Positions 2,010 through 12,661 are shown, numbered from the stretch's first letter. The stretch: DNA of 18,918 bases from a virus (IMGVR_UViG_2698536485_000019:1-18918); one strand, 5' to 3'. Program-made: numbers and translations. The notes: generated by a model not told the origin, from the letters alone.

Positions 2010-2458
2010 GCAGCCCTACCTTTTCGTTGTGACCATTCATACTCTCGCCGGGAGTCATCACTCCACCGCACGTTGCGCTCTGAGCCGAACCAAAACATGA
2101 TTTCGATAAGCTCAGTCATGCTGGCCTTTCGCATTTTGCTGGTACGCACGCCAAGCATGACAACGCCACCATCGATACCAGGCACACTTCGTTGCTCCAG
2201 TTTTTTGGTCTTAAGCCACAGGGCAGTGAACAGGTCTTTCCAGTCCTCCGGCGCAAGTCTCTGTCCATGCCAAAGCACCTGACGTGATACGTCCTGCAAT
2301 AACGCCCACATAAGGCGGTTTTGAGGATTGCTCCGCTTTGGTTCTTTAATGTGGACTTCGTGAGGTGACTTGTCGTCGATCGGAAGTGAGAGTATTGCGT
2401 CTATGGCGTTGTTTCTGATTGCTTCGTTGCGAAGCATGTATATTTGCTTCATTGTCAC
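2006..2458 (-). CDS. ninB: NinB (Orf-family recombination protein)
   Basis: 150-aa ORF; motifs ...NPQNRLMWALLQDVSRQVLWHG... and C-terminal ...[20 protein letters not shown] resemble lambda NinB (from memory). Confidence 0.8.
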   Translation of the reverse strand: MTMKQIYMLRNEAIRNNAIDAILSLPIDDKSPHEVHIKEPKRSNPQNRLMWALLQDVSRQVLWHGQRLAPEDWKDLFTALWLKTKKLEQRSVPGIDGGVVMLGVRTSKMRKASMTELIEIMFWFGSERNVRWSDDSRREYEWSQRKGRAA

Positions 2459-2459
2459 C

Positions 2460-2666
2460 TCAACTCACAAAACGCCACGCCATTTTTGCTACAGCGACAG
2501 GCGCAACACCGATAATCACCCACAGGAAAATGCTACCGAAAAGCACACCAACCAGGTCTTTACCTTCGCCTACCAGCCGGACAAAACTGCTGGCAACCAC
2601 AATGAACGTCGCCACCATCCACATAGCACCGAGAATCCTCAATGCAGAAAAAATCAACTCAACCAC
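2460..2666 (-). CDS. Small membrane protein (two predicted hydrophobic helices), function unknown
   Basis: 68-aa ORF with GTG start at 2666 preceded by GGGGGAGAG; strongly hydrophobic translation (MWMVATFIVVASSF..., VLFGSIFLWVIIGVAPVAVA). Confidence 0.45.
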   Translation of the reverse strand: MVELIFSALRILGAMWMVATFIVVASSFVRLVGEGKDLVGVLFGSIFLWVIIGVAPVAVAKMAWRFVS

Positions 2667-2687
2667 GATTTACTCTCCCCCAAATAA

Positions 2688-2715
2688 AAAGGCCTGCGAT
2701 TACCAGCAGGCCTTT
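2688..2715. terminator. Perfect 10-bp stem hairpin at the 3' end of the HNH endonuclease gene (terminator-like, possibly bidirectional)
   Basis: aaaggcctgc (2688-2697) / gcaggccttt (2706-2715), 8-nt loop; T-run on the plus side (tatctgttttt) and TTATTTG on the minus side. Confidence 0.5.
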
Positions 2716-3325
2716 ATCTGTTTTTAACACGCTTTCGAGTCCTTTTAGATTTTTCCTTAAGATATTCCGCAAGTTTATCCTCATCATTATTAAATTGAGA
2801 TAAAAGCTCATGCTCGCAATTAAGTGCTTTACTCGCATAAGTTCCATATAGTTTCTTTCTTGCTAGTGCTGCTATGAATGCTGCATCTTCTTTGCTATCG
2901 AAATACCCTAACGATATTGTCTTATTTTTATAACCAACATAAGACTTCCACCTGCCAGTTGGCTTATACCAAGACACTCCAATTGCACCGGATGTGTTTA
3001 ATCTATTCCCTACAATGTTTCTTGCATTCTGCTCTTCTGTTGCCAGTCTTAGGTTTGAAATCCTATTGTCAAGTCTGTTCCCATTTACATGATCAATAAA
3101 CTTAGGAGGCCATTTTTTGTATACATAGAACCAAGCAAGTCTATGCGCCTTATACAAAACATTATTTATACTAATGCATATATAACCACCACTAACACCT
3201 CCAGCAATACTACCTTTTACTCTTACTACTGAATTTGTTTTTAGCCATTTAAATATTCCTGTTTCTGAGTCATATGATAATGTTGACAGAAGCTCATCGT
3301 GATCAATTAGTTTTTTTATTCGCAT
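2714..3325 (-). CDS. Free-standing HNH homing endonuclease with AP2-type DNA-binding domain
   Basis: 203-aa ORF; HNH motif IDHVNGNRLDNRISNLRLATEEQNARN and AP2-like segment GVSWYKPTGRWKSYVGYKNKTISLGYFDSKEDAAFIAA. The ~700-bp region is visibly AT-rich relative to its neighbours. Confidence 0.75.
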   Translation of the reverse strand: MRIKKLIDHDELLSTLSYDSETGIFKWLKTNSVVRVKGSIAGGVSGGYICISINNVLYKAHRLAWFYVYKKWPPKFIDHVNGNRLDNRISNLRLATEEQNARNIVGNRLNTSGAIGVSWYKPTGRWKSYVGYKNKTISLGYFDSKEDAAFIAALARKKLYGTYASKALNCEHELLSQFNNDEDKLAEYLKEKSKRTRKRVKNR

Positions 3326-3403
3326 AAAGAATATACTTAATAATATATACAGTAAGAACCATTAGTAACGATAACCCTGCTATTAGCTCAGTGATGTAGA
3401 TGG

Positions 3404-3673
3404 TCATTGCTTCATCTCCCTTTCCATTTCATCAATGTCAACGTCATCAGGAAGATGGGAGCAATACGCCGCTATACCATGATGATTTATCTCATACCCT
3501 TTGAACGTTACCATCTGGTGCGTAATCTCAACTTCGTTCAGGAATCCGTCATCGCATAACTGCCTGGCTATTTTCGATTTGGTCTGGATTATTGGTAGTG
3601 CCTGTTCTTTCAAAGCGCATGATATTTGTGCATCCCATGCCTTTTCGAGAATAGCTAATTGTTTTTTATTCAT
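3404..3673 (-). CDS. Hypothetical nin-region protein
   Basis: 89-aa ORF whose ATG (3673..3671) overlaps the helicase stop (ATGA); no family recognised. Confidence 0.45.
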
Positions 3674-6063
3674 ACGTCAGCCCCTTGTGCATATCGTCTG
3701 CCACGCGCAGCAGGTGCATTTGATGCTGTGCAAATCTGTCTGGCTTCATCCTGGTCACATGCAACAAAGTGTCCGTTACAGAACCGCTGGTAAACCGTAC
3801 CAAGTGAGCCAAAACGGTTTTTCGTCACGATGATTTCAGCAAATGGCGCGGCGCTACTGTTCTCGTCATATACCGCTTCCCGATAGAGCATGATGATTGA
3901 GTCTGCGTCCTGTTCAATGCTTCCTGAATCACGCAAATCTGCGTTTGTCGGGCGTTTATTTGGTCGCTTCTCAACATCGCGCGAAAGCTGACTTAGGGAG
4001 ATAACTGGCGTTTTCAGGTCTTTCGCCATCGCCTTCAGGCTTCCGGAGATGTGAGCAATTGCGAGGTCGTTGCGGTCTGCTTTCGGCTTCTCAATCAGGC
4101 CAAGATAATCCGCCATGATGAGTGAGAGGTTTGGATTTTCCTGTTTGTGCCGTTCTGCGATTGAGCGTATTTCTTCGACCGATAACCGCGAGGCATCGAC
4201 TACCCATACATCCAAATCTGCAAGCTGACTCATGCCGTTAGCAACACGTGCCCAGCCTTCGTCATCCATCGATGCAGGATTTCGCAGTACGCTAACCGAC
4301 ATCCTCCCGGCGTTGGCAATGCTTCGCTCTGCAATCTGCAATGCGCTCATTTCCATTGAGAAAATCAATACCCCGCGCCGGACGTCAGAACCAGGAATAA
4401 CACGACTTGCAACGCCTTCGGCAATCTTCAGCGCCAGTTCCGTATTGTGCGTAACGATGTAATCCGTTGTCACATAGAGATGGCTAGGATGGCTTACCAT
4501 GATGCAGAGACACTCTTCTGGCTCAACAACTTCAACCGATTTGATACCCACACCAACGTCGCCAAGCCTGTTAATCCCGAGATTTTTGCGTAAACGTGGT
4601 GAGTGAATTTGCTCTATCAAAGATGATGGCAACTTCATGCTGACCATGTGTGCATCAAGTCCGTCGTGCTTCTCTCCTTTGTACGTGTAAACTATTCCCG
4701 TCCTGCTGGATTCTTTGGCGGTTCCACCTAAAGATCTAACAAGCCTTACTAATCCTTTAGCTAATTTCTGACTGGATGAACTAAAGCGGATGCATCCGGA
4801 CTTCTCAACCCAGCCATCTGTCTCGAGAAGGCCAGTTAAAACACCGGTACGTATTTCTTTGCTAGCACTAAAAATTTCTGCTGGGATTTCCTTCTCGGAC
4901 GCACCTTTCCCGATCACCCCAATGCCACGTAGTTTGTCCAATAGTGGGTTCTTCTGGCCTTTTTGGTTGCTTATCAAATAATCATTCTCTCCTACCTTAA
5001 CCAGTCGCAATGGTGCAATTGCATCACTCATGCGGCTCAGGACATATTCTTCCGAGTTGGTGAATTTGATGCCTTTTATCAACGAACCGTCACCAAGTAG
5101 AGCCCCAATAACCCAACCATCAAGGGGAATATTTTTACCAAAGTCTCCGGTCAAGGATGGCACTCTTATTCTTCCCTGATAACGTGTTTTTTGTAGCATC
5201 CCAGCCAGCGCATCAGTATCAACAACGCGTTTACCAGTAAATCTTGATGATGAAATTTCCCATAAGTGGTTGTCGGCACATTTCACGCTACGTCCGTCTT
5301 CAAAGGTGACTAAATATGTGAATTTCTTCCCTTGTGGGAAGACGCCAATTACCTCCGAAGGAAGCCCGTCTATTGACGCGATGCGATCGCCAATTTTGAC
5401 TTCTCCGTGAGTAGTCCAGGTGCCATCTGCAAGTAAAATCCCTTCGCTTAGCGCCATTGCTTTCCCCATACCAGGACGAGCAGCGATTATCACCAGGTCT
5501 TCTGCGTTCATCCCTCCGGTGATGGCGTCAAGTTCTTCGATTCCGGTCTTCAGGGTATCTGACTCTTCTCCGTTCCTCAGACGCCTGTCAAGCGTGTCAG
5601 TGTAGTCAGTGATGATTTCCCCTAACCGTACAGGTTTAACCTCGTCACGGGGCTTTCTGATGGCTGAGAGACGTTTTACAAGTTCATCCATCGCCTGACT
5701 CGATGCGTCGATGGTTCCGCTTTGGATTGGTTCACGCATTTCATCCATGATTTCCAGCACCAGACGGCGGTGATAGTTATCCGCGACCATTCCGGCATAT
5801 CCCTTCAGGTTTGCGGCACTCGGGCAGTTTTTGCTGGTCATCAGGATTGACGTGAAATGCTCCTCTCCGCACGCCTCGGCAACCATCAGCGCGTCGATTA
5901 GGTTTCTGTTTCGCGCCTGCTTACGGATAACCTCGAAGGCTTTCCGGTAGAGCGGAATTGAAAACGCCTCCGGCTCCAGCGTTGCCAGAACGTCGCTGGC
6001 AGTTGGCGTTAATCCACCAATCAGCAGGCCACCGATAACGCTCGCTTCGATATCCTGTCTCAT
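3670..6063 (-). CDS. DnaB-family replicative helicase (P22 gp12-like) interrupted by an intein
   Basis: 797-aa ORF. N-terminal domain with ...[18 protein letters not shown]..., Walker A AARPGMGK then a ~339-aa insertion, resuming [10 protein letters not shown]... with typical DnaB C-terminal motifs. Start overlaps the O-like gene stop (ATGA). Confidence 0.85.
4444..5460 (-). mobile_element. Intein with LAGLIDADG homing-endonuclease domain inserted at the helicase P-loop (GMGK | T)
   Basis: Helicase residues 202-540. Begins [14 protein letters not shown] (Ala, not Cys/Ser), block B ...[19 protein letters not shown]-like motifs [13 protein letters not shown] and [11 protein letters not shown], block [20 protein letters not shown], block G YIVTHN followed by +1 Thr, which restores GK-T of Walker A after excision. 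Confidence 0.75.
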
Positions 6064-7007
6064 GCAATCCCCCTGTCTGCAAACTTCCCTTCCCGGACTC
6101 CCGTTAACGAGTCTTCTCTCAGCAGGTAATCAAAATCTGCCGTCCAGCCCGTGTCGTTGTCTCCGAAGTAAAACGGCTTGGCCTGATGCACAAACGCCCT
6201 GACATACGCTCTGAAACCGTCCACGTTTGGCGTTTTCAGTTGCGGGATGATTTTCTTCAGGCGGCGTTTGCGTTTCTCGTTGACCGCAACAGCATGTGGA
6301 AGTCTGTCACCGACTTCGGTGTTGTAGGCGTTCAGGAAGGATTCGTAGTCGATTCGTTCTGCCTTGCGACGTTCAGGTTTAACCTGCCCATCGCCTCCCC
6401 CATTGGGGGGTAGGGGGGTATTATTTATATTCTTGTTAATACCTTCTTGTTCATGATGTGCGGTTGTTTGTGCGGCTTCATGTGCGCTTTCATGTGCGGC
6501 ATGTTCGCTGAAATCCGCGCCATTACTGGCTTCGTCATGTGCGGCATCATGTGCGGTCGTTTGTGCGGCTTCATGTGCGGGTGAATCGTCCATTTTTTGA
6601 GCATATTCATGGTAATTTGTGATGGTAATCACACGACCTTTTTGCTTCTCTCCATCAATGGTGATCATCCCCTCTTTCACAAAAACCTGAAGCATCCGCT
6701 CAACCTGATCGCGGCTTGCTGGCTTGCCATGCCTGTCGCATAACTGAAGACCTAAATCAGCTGCTGTCACAACCAGTTGACCGGGTTGCAGATGCCATTC
6801 ATGACCTTTGAAATTCGCTTTGTATGGCTTTCTGGTGGCATTCAGGAGAAGGTTTTCCCACAGGGTGCGAAGATAAACATCTTTCGCCCATGACTGTTTC
6901 AGAATGCTCCGGTACAACGGAATGTAACCAGTTTTCTGGTTCTCCATCCTGTTGCTCCTGCGCTCGTGTGCGGCGCTGAAATCGTAGATTTTTGCTGTAT
7001 TGCTCAT
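6060..7007 (-). CDS. Replication initiator, lambda O / P22 gp18-like, with iteron-containing origin inside the gene
   Basis: 315-aa ORF starting [10 protein letters not shown]... (P22 gp18-like N-terminus, from memory); the central His/Ala-rich repetitive segment is encoded by the iteron array; directly upstream of the helicase gene. Confidence 0.75.
6418..6600. repeat. Putative replication origin: iteron array (about 7 copies of a (T/C)(A/T)TGTGCGG core at ~12-bp spacing) plus adjacent AT-rich segment
   Basis: Repeated catgtgcgg / tttgtgcgg units across 6445-6600; AT-rich stretch ggtattatttatattcttgttaatacc at 6418-6450 on the transcription-downstream side, as in lambda ori. Confidence 0.65.
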
Positions 7008-10900: not shown

Positions 10901-10972
10901 GCGCGGCGTTACCGCATACCAATAACGCTTCACTCGAGGCGTTTTTCGTTATGTATAAATAAGGAGCACACC

Positions 10973-11113
10973 ATGCAATATGCCATTGCAGGGTGGCCTG
11001 TTGCTGGCTGCCCTTCCGAATCTTTACTTGAGCGAATCACCCGTAAATTACGTGACGGATGGAAACGCCTTATCGACATACTTAATCAGCCAGGAGTTCC
11101 AAAAAATGGATAA
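10973..11113 (+). CDS. cIII: CIII (inhibitor of FtsH-mediated CII degradation)
   Basis: 46-aa ORF (below the six-frame track cutoff) after AAGGAG: MQYAIAGWPVAGCPSESLLERITRKLRDGWKRLIDILNQPGVPKNG, near-identical to lambda CIII as I recall it. Confidence 0.8.
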   Translation: MQYAIAGWPVAGCPSESLLERITRKLRDGWKRLIDILNQPGVPKNG

Positions 11114-11412: not shown

Positions 11413-12069
11413 ATGGGTACTGCGACATTAATACTCGGTGAGTCTGGCACCGGAAAATCAACCAGTTTAAGAAACTTACCACCAGAAAAAACATTAATCA
11501 TACAGTGCATAAACAAACCGCTACCATTCCCATCAAGTGATTGGGTTAAAATAAGCAAGGAAAACAATAACGGGAACATATACAGAACAGATAATACTGA
11601 AAATATTGTAAGGGCACTAATTAATGCTCCGCATGAAATTGTAGTTATTGATGATTATCAGGCTGTGATGGTTAACGAACTAATGGGTAAATGCAATGAG
11701 AGAGGATATGACAAATTTACCTCGATAGGGAAAAACGCATGGGATGTGTTCAGGGCTGCTGGTGAAGGTGCAGACACTCGGAGAGTTTATATTCTGGCAC
11801 ACACGCAAACTGATGATTTTGGCTATACACGAATGAAAACCGTCGGAAAACTAGTCGATTCGACACTTGTTCCTGAAGGTTATTTCACTATCGTGTTAAG
11901 AACTCACGTACAGAACGGAAAATACTCATTTTCCACCCAGACAAACGGGAGTGATTGTTGTAAAAGTCCGGTTGGGATGTTTGATAGTCAGTTTATTGAT
12001 AATGATTTGTACGAAGTAGATAAAAAAATATGCTCTTACTATGGGTTTGAAAAAAATGAGACGTCTTGA
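11413..12069 (+). CDS. Sak4-like RecA-core ATPase (phage single-strand annealing recombinase family)
   Basis: 218-aa ORF with N-terminal Walker A GESGTGKST and Walker B-like VVIDDY; size and position (replacing exo/bet) fit Sak4-type recombinases of P22-like phages. Confidence 0.6.
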   Translation: MGTATLILGESGTGKSTSLRNLPPEKTLIIQCINKPLPFPSSDWVKISKENNNGNIYRTDNTENIVRALINAPHEIVVIDDYQAVMVNELMGKCNERGYDKFTSIGKNAWDVFRAAGEGADTRRVYILAHTQTDDFGYTRMKTVGKLVDSTLVPEGYFTIVLRTHVQNGKYSFSTQTNGSDCCKSPVGMFDSQFIDNDLYEVDKKICSYYGFEKNETS

Positions 12070-12661
12070 GGTATCCGGCGAGAGATTTGGCAATTTAGTT
12101 GTTATTGGTGATGCAGGAATGCGTGGTACTCAAAGGTTGGTAAACTGTGTGTGTGACTGCGGAGTAGTTTGTGTTAAACAGCTTGGCAACCTCCGTTCAG
12201 GGCACACAAGAAGTTGTGGTTGCTCACGCTCATCTACAACAAAAGCAAGAAAAAACAAACATGGCATGTATGGAACACCAACATACAAGTCATGGTCTTC
12301 AATGTTAACAAGATGCTTCAATGAAAGAAATAGTAAATACAAACACTATGGAGGAAGAGGAATAACTGTTTGTGAACGGTGGCTGAACTTTAAATTATTT
12401 TTCGCTGATATGGGAAAAAGACCTGACGGAACTACATTGGGAAGAATTGATAACAATGGTAATTACGAACCATCAAATTGCGAATGGCAGAAAAGTATCG
12501 AGCAAGCAAGAAATAAGAGTAATACCGTATTATTTAAATTCAATGGAGTGCTGGCAACAATTTCAGAGCACTGCGAAAAAACTGGATTAAACCCAAGCAC
12601 GGTAAGAAGCAGGATTTACACATATCATTGGTCTGTAGACAAGGCCTTATCAAAAGGATAA
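12041..12661 (+). CDS. Cys-rich HNH-family (variant) nuclease-like protein
   Basis: N-terminal Cys cluster CVCDCG...SCGC; C-terminal RIDNNGNYEPSNCEWQKSIEQARN parallels the HNH motif IDHVNGN...NLRLATEEQNARN of the 2714-3325 endonuclease, with the first His replaced by Asn. Start ambiguous (ATG at 12041 or 12056). Confidence 0.5.
   Translation: MGLKKMRRLEVSGERFGNLVVIGDAGMRGTQRLVNCVCDCGVVCVKQLGNLRSGHTRSCGCSRSSTTKARKNKHGMYGTPTYKSWSSMLTRCFNERNSKYKHYGGRGITVCERWLNFKLFFADMGKRPDGTTLGRIDNNGNYEPSNCEWQKSIEQARNKSNTVLFKFNGVLATISEHCEKTGLNPSTVRSRIYTYHWSVDKALSKG

Follow-up and report, generated by a model that had tools for sequence, protein, structure and literature searches.

A 658-bp block of AT-rich DNA inserted into the ninA/tR2 module of a lambdoid E. 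coli prophage is probably a free-standing homing endonuclease gene, encoding an I-HmuI-like HNH nuclease with an AP2 domain, which targets this module and would be expressed with the early right operon. The window, that is the whole stretch of DNA that was analysed, comprises 18,918 nucleotides. An earlier note on this DNA had proposed a free-standing HNH/AP2 homing endonuclease gene, and this proposal is supported by the domains of the encoded protein, by a fixed insertion site and by the presence or absence of the gene among relatives, with no intron or intein around it. Homing itself is what we infer from these observations, and we think it rather likely that it is active or was so until recently.

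The insertion splits the ninA/tR2 module

Comparison with relatives lacking the gene defined the boundaries of the insertion. In the insert-free alleles of phages TL-2011a and mEp213 the gap is filled by a module of 70 bp (ATGACCATCTACATCACTGAGCTAATAACAGGCCTGCTGGTAATCGCAGGCCTTTTTATTTGGGGGAGAG on the coding strand), which runs from ATGACCATC to GGCCTGCTGGTAATCGCAGGCCTTTTTATTTGGGGGAGAG. Lambda carries the same 70 bp between ren and ninB, and in the P22 record M10074 the module is annotated as 'ninA protein'. It holds a ninA ORF of 27 codons with the terminator tR2 inside, the stem of which measures 8 bp in empty alleles. A study of tR2 described the NinA start in the natural sequence before the terminator, with 30 bp from the AUG to the terminator and 16 bp from there to the stop of the NinA ORF (PMC4824070), and the module sequence fits this description exactly. 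Judged by its sequence, the home of the insert is the lambda ninA/tR2 module, which connects the replication genes with the nin region and hardly varies between lambda and P22. Between the lambda module and the commonest allele there is one synonymous ATC/ATT change, and the resident halves in the window equal the lambda module except for the junction bases.

Within the first 15 nt of ninA, the variants found among 109 empty modules are, with one exception, synonymous third-position changes (ATC/ATT/ATA, ACC/ACT), in a sample that was chosen by an exact 37-mer and is biased. Such a pattern hints at real translation of the 27-codon ORF. Phage mEp506 (L041 1734-1832) carries a 32-codon 'NinA' variant which has only the first ~32 nt in common with the standard module and may represent another alternative filling of the joint.

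The occupied module (2673-3407) measures 735 nt and the empty one 70 nt, which makes a net insertion of 665 bp with the imperfect 8-bp junction repeat counted. The insert entered after ninA codon 9 (...GAG CTA ATA), 1-3 nt ahead of the tR2 stem, which corresponds to ~40,594-40,595 in lambda coordinates, and it splits the module while both halves remain. The gene is therefore located inside ninA, the first nin ORF, and not between nin-region genes as had been stated. The coordinates of all parts are given in Table 1.

Table 1. Parts of the insertion, of the encoded protein and of the surrounding operon. Nucleotide positions are those of the window; residue numbers are those of the HNH-AP2 protein.
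Feature	Position	Strand	Remarks
Dam methylase	1482-2009	minus	
NinB	2006-2458	minus	
68-aa membrane ORF	2460-2666	minus	downstream neighbour, PHROG 1165
Resident 3' part of ninA/tR2 module	2673-2717	minus	hairpin 2688-2715, U-tract, remnant ninA codons, Shine-Dalgarno of next gene
Left junction repeat copy	2711-2717		CCT-TTAT; imperfect 8-bp direct repeat around insert
Predicted HNH-AP2 endonuclease ORF	2714-3325	minus	203 aa, own start and stop codons
N-terminal beta region	residues 1-57		
HNH_3 core	residues 58-102		D78-H79, N91/N100/N103
AP2 domain	residues 114-161		
Basic helical tail	residues 169-203		
Core of inserted DNA	2718-3375	minus	missing from empty alleles; GC 0.339
Chimeric ninA' ORF	3303-3407	minus	34 codons
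Right junction repeat copy	3376-3383		CCTGCTAT; same imperfect 8-bp direct repeat
orf89	3404-3673	minus	upstream neighbour, PHROG 2239 (function unknown)
DnaB-type helicase with intein	3670-6063	minus	
O-like replication protein	6060-7007	minus	

On the upstream side the ninA ATG is kept and overlaps the stop of orf89 as ATGA. The first nine codons (3381-3407) of the resulting ORF, ninA', are resident and the other 25, which are AT-rich, come from the insert. This 34-codon ORF was absent from the earlier account. Its product is hydrophobic, with a hydrophobic tail that is encoded anew by the insert; by reading of the sequences, the similarity of this tail to ninA is weak at both the nucleotide and the residue level. 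The ninA' ORF and the beginning of the HNH gene overlap by 23 nt, and no Shine-Dalgarno sequence was seen ahead of the HNH ATG on reading the sequence.

On the downstream side the U-tract, the old ninA 3' codons (GLLVIAGLFIWGR...) and the ribosome-binding site of the next gene (GGGGGAGAG) were left in place. The stop codon of the HNH gene, TAA (2714-2716), abuts the tR2 stem and adds two pairs to it, so that 10 bp are formed instead of 8; for local segments of 50-52 nt, the predicted folding energy is -16.8 kcal/mol in the empty and -20.7 kcal/mol in the occupied state. The perfect 10-bp hairpin that had been noticed here (2688-2697/2706-2715, with a loop of 8 nt and a T-run after it on the minus strand) is indeed present. 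However, it is not an end of the element's own, since the 8-bp stem pre-exists in insert-free alleles as lambda tR2.

With a GC content of 0.339, compared to 0.504 (2006-2666) and 0.475 (3404-4100) in the flanks, the core of the insert bears out the earlier description of an AT-rich island (~34% against ~50% GC). It is the 658-nt stretch of lowest GC in the window, 0.07% of such stretches being equally low. As the window also drops to GC 0.35-0.39 between 9.0 and 12.8 kb, AT-richness by itself is not unique to the insert. The neighbouring genes all lie on the minus strand.

Several other kinds of element were considered and rejected. An IS or a MITE does not fit an insert that lacks terminal inverted repeats (none were found at the ends 2718/3375) as well as a transposase, and of which the sole ORF product is the HNH-AP2 protein. 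The only transposon-like trait is that the junctions bear an imperfect direct repeat of 8 bp, in place of which empty sites show CCTGTTAT once. Neither was the insert regarded as a moron: no promoter-like site was found on the coding strand within it, and its terminator is the resident tR2 that is already present in empty alleles. An intron-encoded gene was rejected because no group I or group II intron, or any other Rfam family, was matched in 2400-3700. That the empty alleles are deletions of the insert is contradicted by their being ~20 times commoner, by their range from lambda to P22 and by their intact ninA, and a deletion between the junction repeats would not regenerate ATAACAGGCC exactly.

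The encoded protein combines an HNH nuclease module with an AP2 domain

The 203-aa protein holds the HNH motif IDHVNGNRLDNRISNLRLAT. In Pfam the HNH_3 family was matched with an E-value of 2.9e-15 (56.1 bits, cut-off 24.8), and AP2 with an E-value of 1.6e-6 at 28.7 bits, which is under the cut-off of 33.3; PF00847 is included in the precomputed Pfam list of a cluster representative that is 98% identical. The protein also matched PHROG 99 'HNH endonuclease' (E=1.3e-71). An AlphaFold model, for which 62 homologues were used as input, reached a mean pLDDT of 89.1 and a pTM of 0.74. In this model the HNH domain adopts the beta-beta-alpha fold and the AP2 region consists of a helix with a three-stranded sheet packed on it, on which AP2 domains superposed at 1.0-1.3 A in Foldseek. 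The residues D78-H79...N91...N100/N103 line up with VDH...NLR...N of I-HmuI; in the alignment of the 62 homologues D78, H79, N87, N91 and N103 are invariant and N100 is nearly so.

By profile, residues and predicted fold, the protein belongs to the HNH (His-Me finger) nucleases. The AP2 assignment combines a sub-threshold sequence score with the support of the fold model. Four parts can be distinguished in the protein: the nuclease module at the N-terminus, which resembles I-HmuI, then the DNA-binding AP2 domain, a short helical stretch and a basic tail. The HNH motif and AP2-type domain that had been ascribed to this ORF were thus recovered by Pfam, AlphaFold and Foldseek, and the profile searches returned matches for a nuclease and, under the cut-off, for a DNA-binding domain.

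Relatives of the protein are found in 2326 phage records, and all but 19 near-identical copies are <60% identical. The nearest other protein in a large protein collection is a 63%-identical chimera. The exact 203-aa protein has been recorded as 'HNH endonuclease' or 'homing endonuclease' on at least 998 contigs, and a Salmonella version that is 99% identical is on record.

The insert is present or absent at a single site in diverse contexts

A query with the empty module matched 411 phage records, including lambda, P22, epsilon34, HK97-like and Stx phages, and ~3018 places in 2058 of 5426 complete E. coli genomes. The insert was found in 19 phage records, in 30 IMG/VR contigs and at 138 places in 126 of the complete E. 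coli genomes. It therefore occupies ~4.6% of the detectable modules, in phages and genomes alike, and the universal presence and lack of a compositional break that would have spoken against a mobile gene were not observed. A scan of one genome per species yielded a single E. coli contig besides two weak, unrelated matches, and says little on host range. Salmonella phages carry the target, yet none of the 19 insert-bearing phage records is from Salmonella.

In every copy examined the insert sits at the same nucleotide position. The tR2-side junction was detected in 126/126 insert-bearing E. coli genomes and the ninA-side junction in 115/125, the rest of which include copies truncated at the 5' end. 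Across the 19 phage records the identity of the 717-bp island is 99.4% or more, while the gene upstream of it differs: Ren in PA28, a P/DnaB-like gene in HK022, and orf89 in the window and in the Stx2a phage F578. Copies of the insert are 97.9-100% identical in all contexts. Among 27 sampled occupied loci we counted at least six upstream and at least seven downstream gene contexts in ~14 combinations, and a single allele, identical throughout its 658 bp, occurs in four flank combinations.

The empty sites are similarly diverse: 109 of them show 29 combinations of flanks, with seven different contexts upstream and 13 downstream. When 123 sampled empty loci were compared with the occupied ones, five occupied contexts had an empty counterpart that matched on both flanks. 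The flanks of an occupied locus (L013) and of empty TL-2011a are 100% identical over 500 and 384 bp, and mEp213 is a further relative without the insert.

Most copies are intact

Of 33 copies sampled, 30 have a full-length, intact ORF, and these represent nine alleles. The distinct codon changes in these copies are nine synonymous and eight non-synonymous ones; although the numbers are small, non-synonymous changes appear rarer than under neutral drift, and this ratio suggests that the protein is under some selection.

Decayed copies, as are expected among such elements, were also found. The ORFs of H98 and H99 are annotated as split or partial, one copy (L035) is frameshifted, and another (L040) consists of only the first 105 bp. 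In E. coli strain 350 (L162 1197-2985) an IS1203 transposase gene lies beside a copy without its 5' part; here 89% of the insert is matched and the HNH gene is annotated as two fragments, the AP2 part and a partial HNH pseudogene. A chimera was detected at 4919-5516 of L007, a contig of the Logan assembly SRR10380363, in which the ninA' leader and the first ~63 codons are identical to the HNH gene. The remainder is a different, GC-richer C-terminal HNH-AP2 half that runs straight into rusA, without tR2. This arrangement suggests recombination between paralogous endonuclease genes.

Relation to known endonucleases

The combination of HNH and AP2 is a described class of homing endonucleases in phages, cyanobacteria and ciliates (PMC10448857, citing Magnani, Sjolander and Hake 2004). 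It includes the 'IPA-HNH' genes of Vibrio phage ICP1, which have the same N-terminal HNH and C-terminal AP2 and are likewise free-standing in phage genomes. From these divergent genes the window protein differs by its canonical HNH_3 domain. The lineage of the window is <60% identical to other members of the class, the one 63% chimera excepted, and it stands apart from them by its occurrence in temperate lambdoid phages and by a defined target, ninA/tR2.

I-HmuI of Bacillus phage SPO1 (PDB 1U3E), which nicks one strand only, is an intron-encoded enzyme (group I) with a helix-turn-helix tail, whereas the window protein is free-standing and has an AP2 domain. The two share 19% identity, and taken by itself their sequence match lacks significance (E=0.23).

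The mob and seg genes of T-even phages are free-standing homing endonuclease genes that spread by 'intronless homing'. They resemble the gene in the window in having an own ORF between or within conserved genes, in being present or absent among relatives and in an expected spread by break repair in mixed infection. They differ from it in belonging to virulent phages and in lacking AP2, and the target in the window is a universal 70-bp module that comprises a micro-ORF as well as a terminator and belongs to temperate phages and resident prophages. The lambda tR2/ninA module is the target of the gene and not its relative; in the window it is split by 665 bp, and the C-terminus of ninA is swapped for codons of the insert.

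A model for homing and its alternatives

The gene has an own ORF outside any intron or intein, an on/off polymorphism at one fixed site and one target position, as a free-standing homing endonuclease gene would have. By analogy to lambda, the pR transcript that terminates at tR2 would have the HNH gene as its last cistron, and the gene would consequently be silent in a repressed prophage. Its translation is probably coupled via ninA', which would itself be ATGA-coupled to the upstream gene. When an insert-free lambdoid genome shares the cell through co-infection or co-induction, the protein would bind the intact module of that genome. The AP2 domain would probably contact the GC-rich DNA of the tR2 stem; a preference of AP2 domains for GC-rich DNA was reported (PMC10448857). 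The protein would then nick or cut near the bound module, and recombinational repair (Red/RecET, NinB-Orf, RecA) off the insert-bearing genome would copy the gene in, with the universal 27 bp and 43 bp as arms, or longer flanks where these are common to both genomes. The insert-bearing allele would be immune, because its site is split into halves that lie 665 bp apart.

Several observations weigh against homing. The AP2 score is under the Pfam gathering threshold, occupancy is only ~4.6% despite an abundant target, and Salmonella phages carry the target but are missing from the 19 insert-bearing phage records, a 99%-identical Salmonella protein nevertheless being on record. Where both flanking genes differ, the arms of homology for repair would be short. 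The imperfect 8-bp junction repeat is not expected as a product of repair-mediated homing and may record a different founding event. Finally, every copy could stem from one insertion that was followed by ordinary homologous recombination.

This last point leads to the strongest alternative, namely that one old insertion into ninA has been carried along as passive cargo by ordinary lambdoid mosaic recombination without the nuclease driving it. The sole difference to homing is whether the nuclease stimulates transfer. The gene may in that case have been retained for a benefit to the phage, for instance by damaging competing lambdoid genomes or by feeding recombination, and the substitution ratio, which hints at some selection on the protein, would agree with this. 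Genes are shuffled around the empty module too, which lies at a mosaic joint with its 29 flank combinations; this favours passive carriage over homing, and so does an occupancy that is low and stable in phages and genomes. SNPs in the downstream 68-aa gene are mosaic without a clear co-conversion tract; while this lacks the clean signal of homing, the comparison does not set the two readings apart. Passive carriage would, however, need many repeats of crossovers within arms of 27 bp and 43 bp. It would also have to place one identical 658-bp allele in four flank combinations, and the architecture of the protein is that of known homing endonucleases. We regard passive carriage as unlikely, although it has to be kept in mind.

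A wider reading, in which the nuclease recognises tR2 DNA through AP2 on the GC-rich palindrome or on an extruded hairpin, would have it break the modules of co-resident lambdoid phages and prophages, create a recombination hot spot between the replication and nin genes and thereby drive the mosaicism of lambdoid and Stx phages. Its second part concerns the terminator. Ribosomes suppress tR2 when a stop codon sits a few bp upstream (PMC4824070), and one may speculate that translation of the HNH gene could lower tR2 termination. With its stop codon in the base of the stem, the gene's own translation would modulate termination and allow N-independent read-through into the nin and Q genes. Taken as a whole this joint reading is doubtful.

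That the protein has been domesticated and now serves chiefly to regulate through DNA binding, or as a cofactor of packaging or replication like the terminase-associated HNH proteins, is improbable. There is a precedent in the HNH protein of HK97-type phages, which acts in packaging, and the gene sits in the replication/nin operon. AP2 modules have also given rise to transcription factors by co-option (PMC10448857, citing Magnani 2004). On the other hand, the catalytic residues are intact, terminase genes are not adjacent and the composition is foreign. The gene is moreover dispensable, as ~95% of otherwise similar phages, isogenic ones included, do without it. A former homing endonuclease that is now inactive and merely persists would account for the truncated, frameshifted, IS-interrupted and chimeric copies and for a start codon without a Shine-Dalgarno sequence, and is very hard to reconcile with 30/33 full-length copies, intact catalytic residues and the under-representation of non-synonymous changes.

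Other elements of the prophage

The earlier note had counted three endonuclease-like selfish elements in this prophage. Besides the HNH-AP2 gene, the intein of the DnaB-type helicase is confirmed. It comprises 339 aa (residues 202-540), follows the P-loop GMGK, starts with Ala (AMALSEG...) and ends with THN before Thr, and it matches LAGLIDADG_3, Hom_end and Hint. In mEp213 the helicase is intein-free (458 aa), and the exteins of the window are 96-100% identical to it. For the third element, a 206-aa protein encoded at 12041-12661 (plus), only membership in the HNH-labelled PHROG 374 'HNH endonuclease' (E=2e-64) could be upheld. It matched no Pfam family, and in its motif RIDNNGN an Asn replaces the catalytic His. 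Its gene sits between genes for an AAA_24 ATPase and an SSB-family protein.

On the minus strand, Rfam matches at gathering level were obtained for a C4 antisense RNA (1081-1164), isrK (1190-1266) and the c4 a1/b1 targets (1227-1279), just upstream of a P22_AR/ORF6N antirepressor ORF (294-1028, minus). Judged by sequence, the C4 RNA and the antirepressor look like an antisense-controlled antirepressor module of the P1/P7 type. The thermoregulator RNA element of lambda cIII was matched in full length at 10960-11018 (plus) with 88.5 bits.

Implications for lambdoid phages

Public records already list the gene as an HNH or homing endonuclease, and the family to which it belongs has been described. 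No account of ninA/tR2 as its home site, or of the rebuilding of ninA with tR2 kept, was found in the literature searched, subscription papers including the HK022 genome paper being outside its scope. What is newly defined is the target site ninA/tR2, which is notable and experimentally convenient. Lambda tR2 is a standard model of an intrinsic terminator, the system is amenable to lambda genetics, and HK022 already has the insert. In the typing of Stx phages the insert is a useful presence/absence marker.

The insertion keeps the logic of the operon, as the ninA start and its coupling are retained, the hydrophobic tail is replaced and the terminator is kept and lengthened. Almost all lambda-like phages have the ninA/tR2 module, which ranks with the best conserved short sequences that lambda, P22, HK97-like and Shiga-toxin phages have in common. 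If homing holds true, the gene could pass between phages that have no other sequence in common at this locus, and it would naturally give rise to breaks at a major boundary of the mosaic. Breaks at this boundary would fit the recent proposal that nuclease genes mark the boundaries of genetic exchange between phages (PMC10448857).
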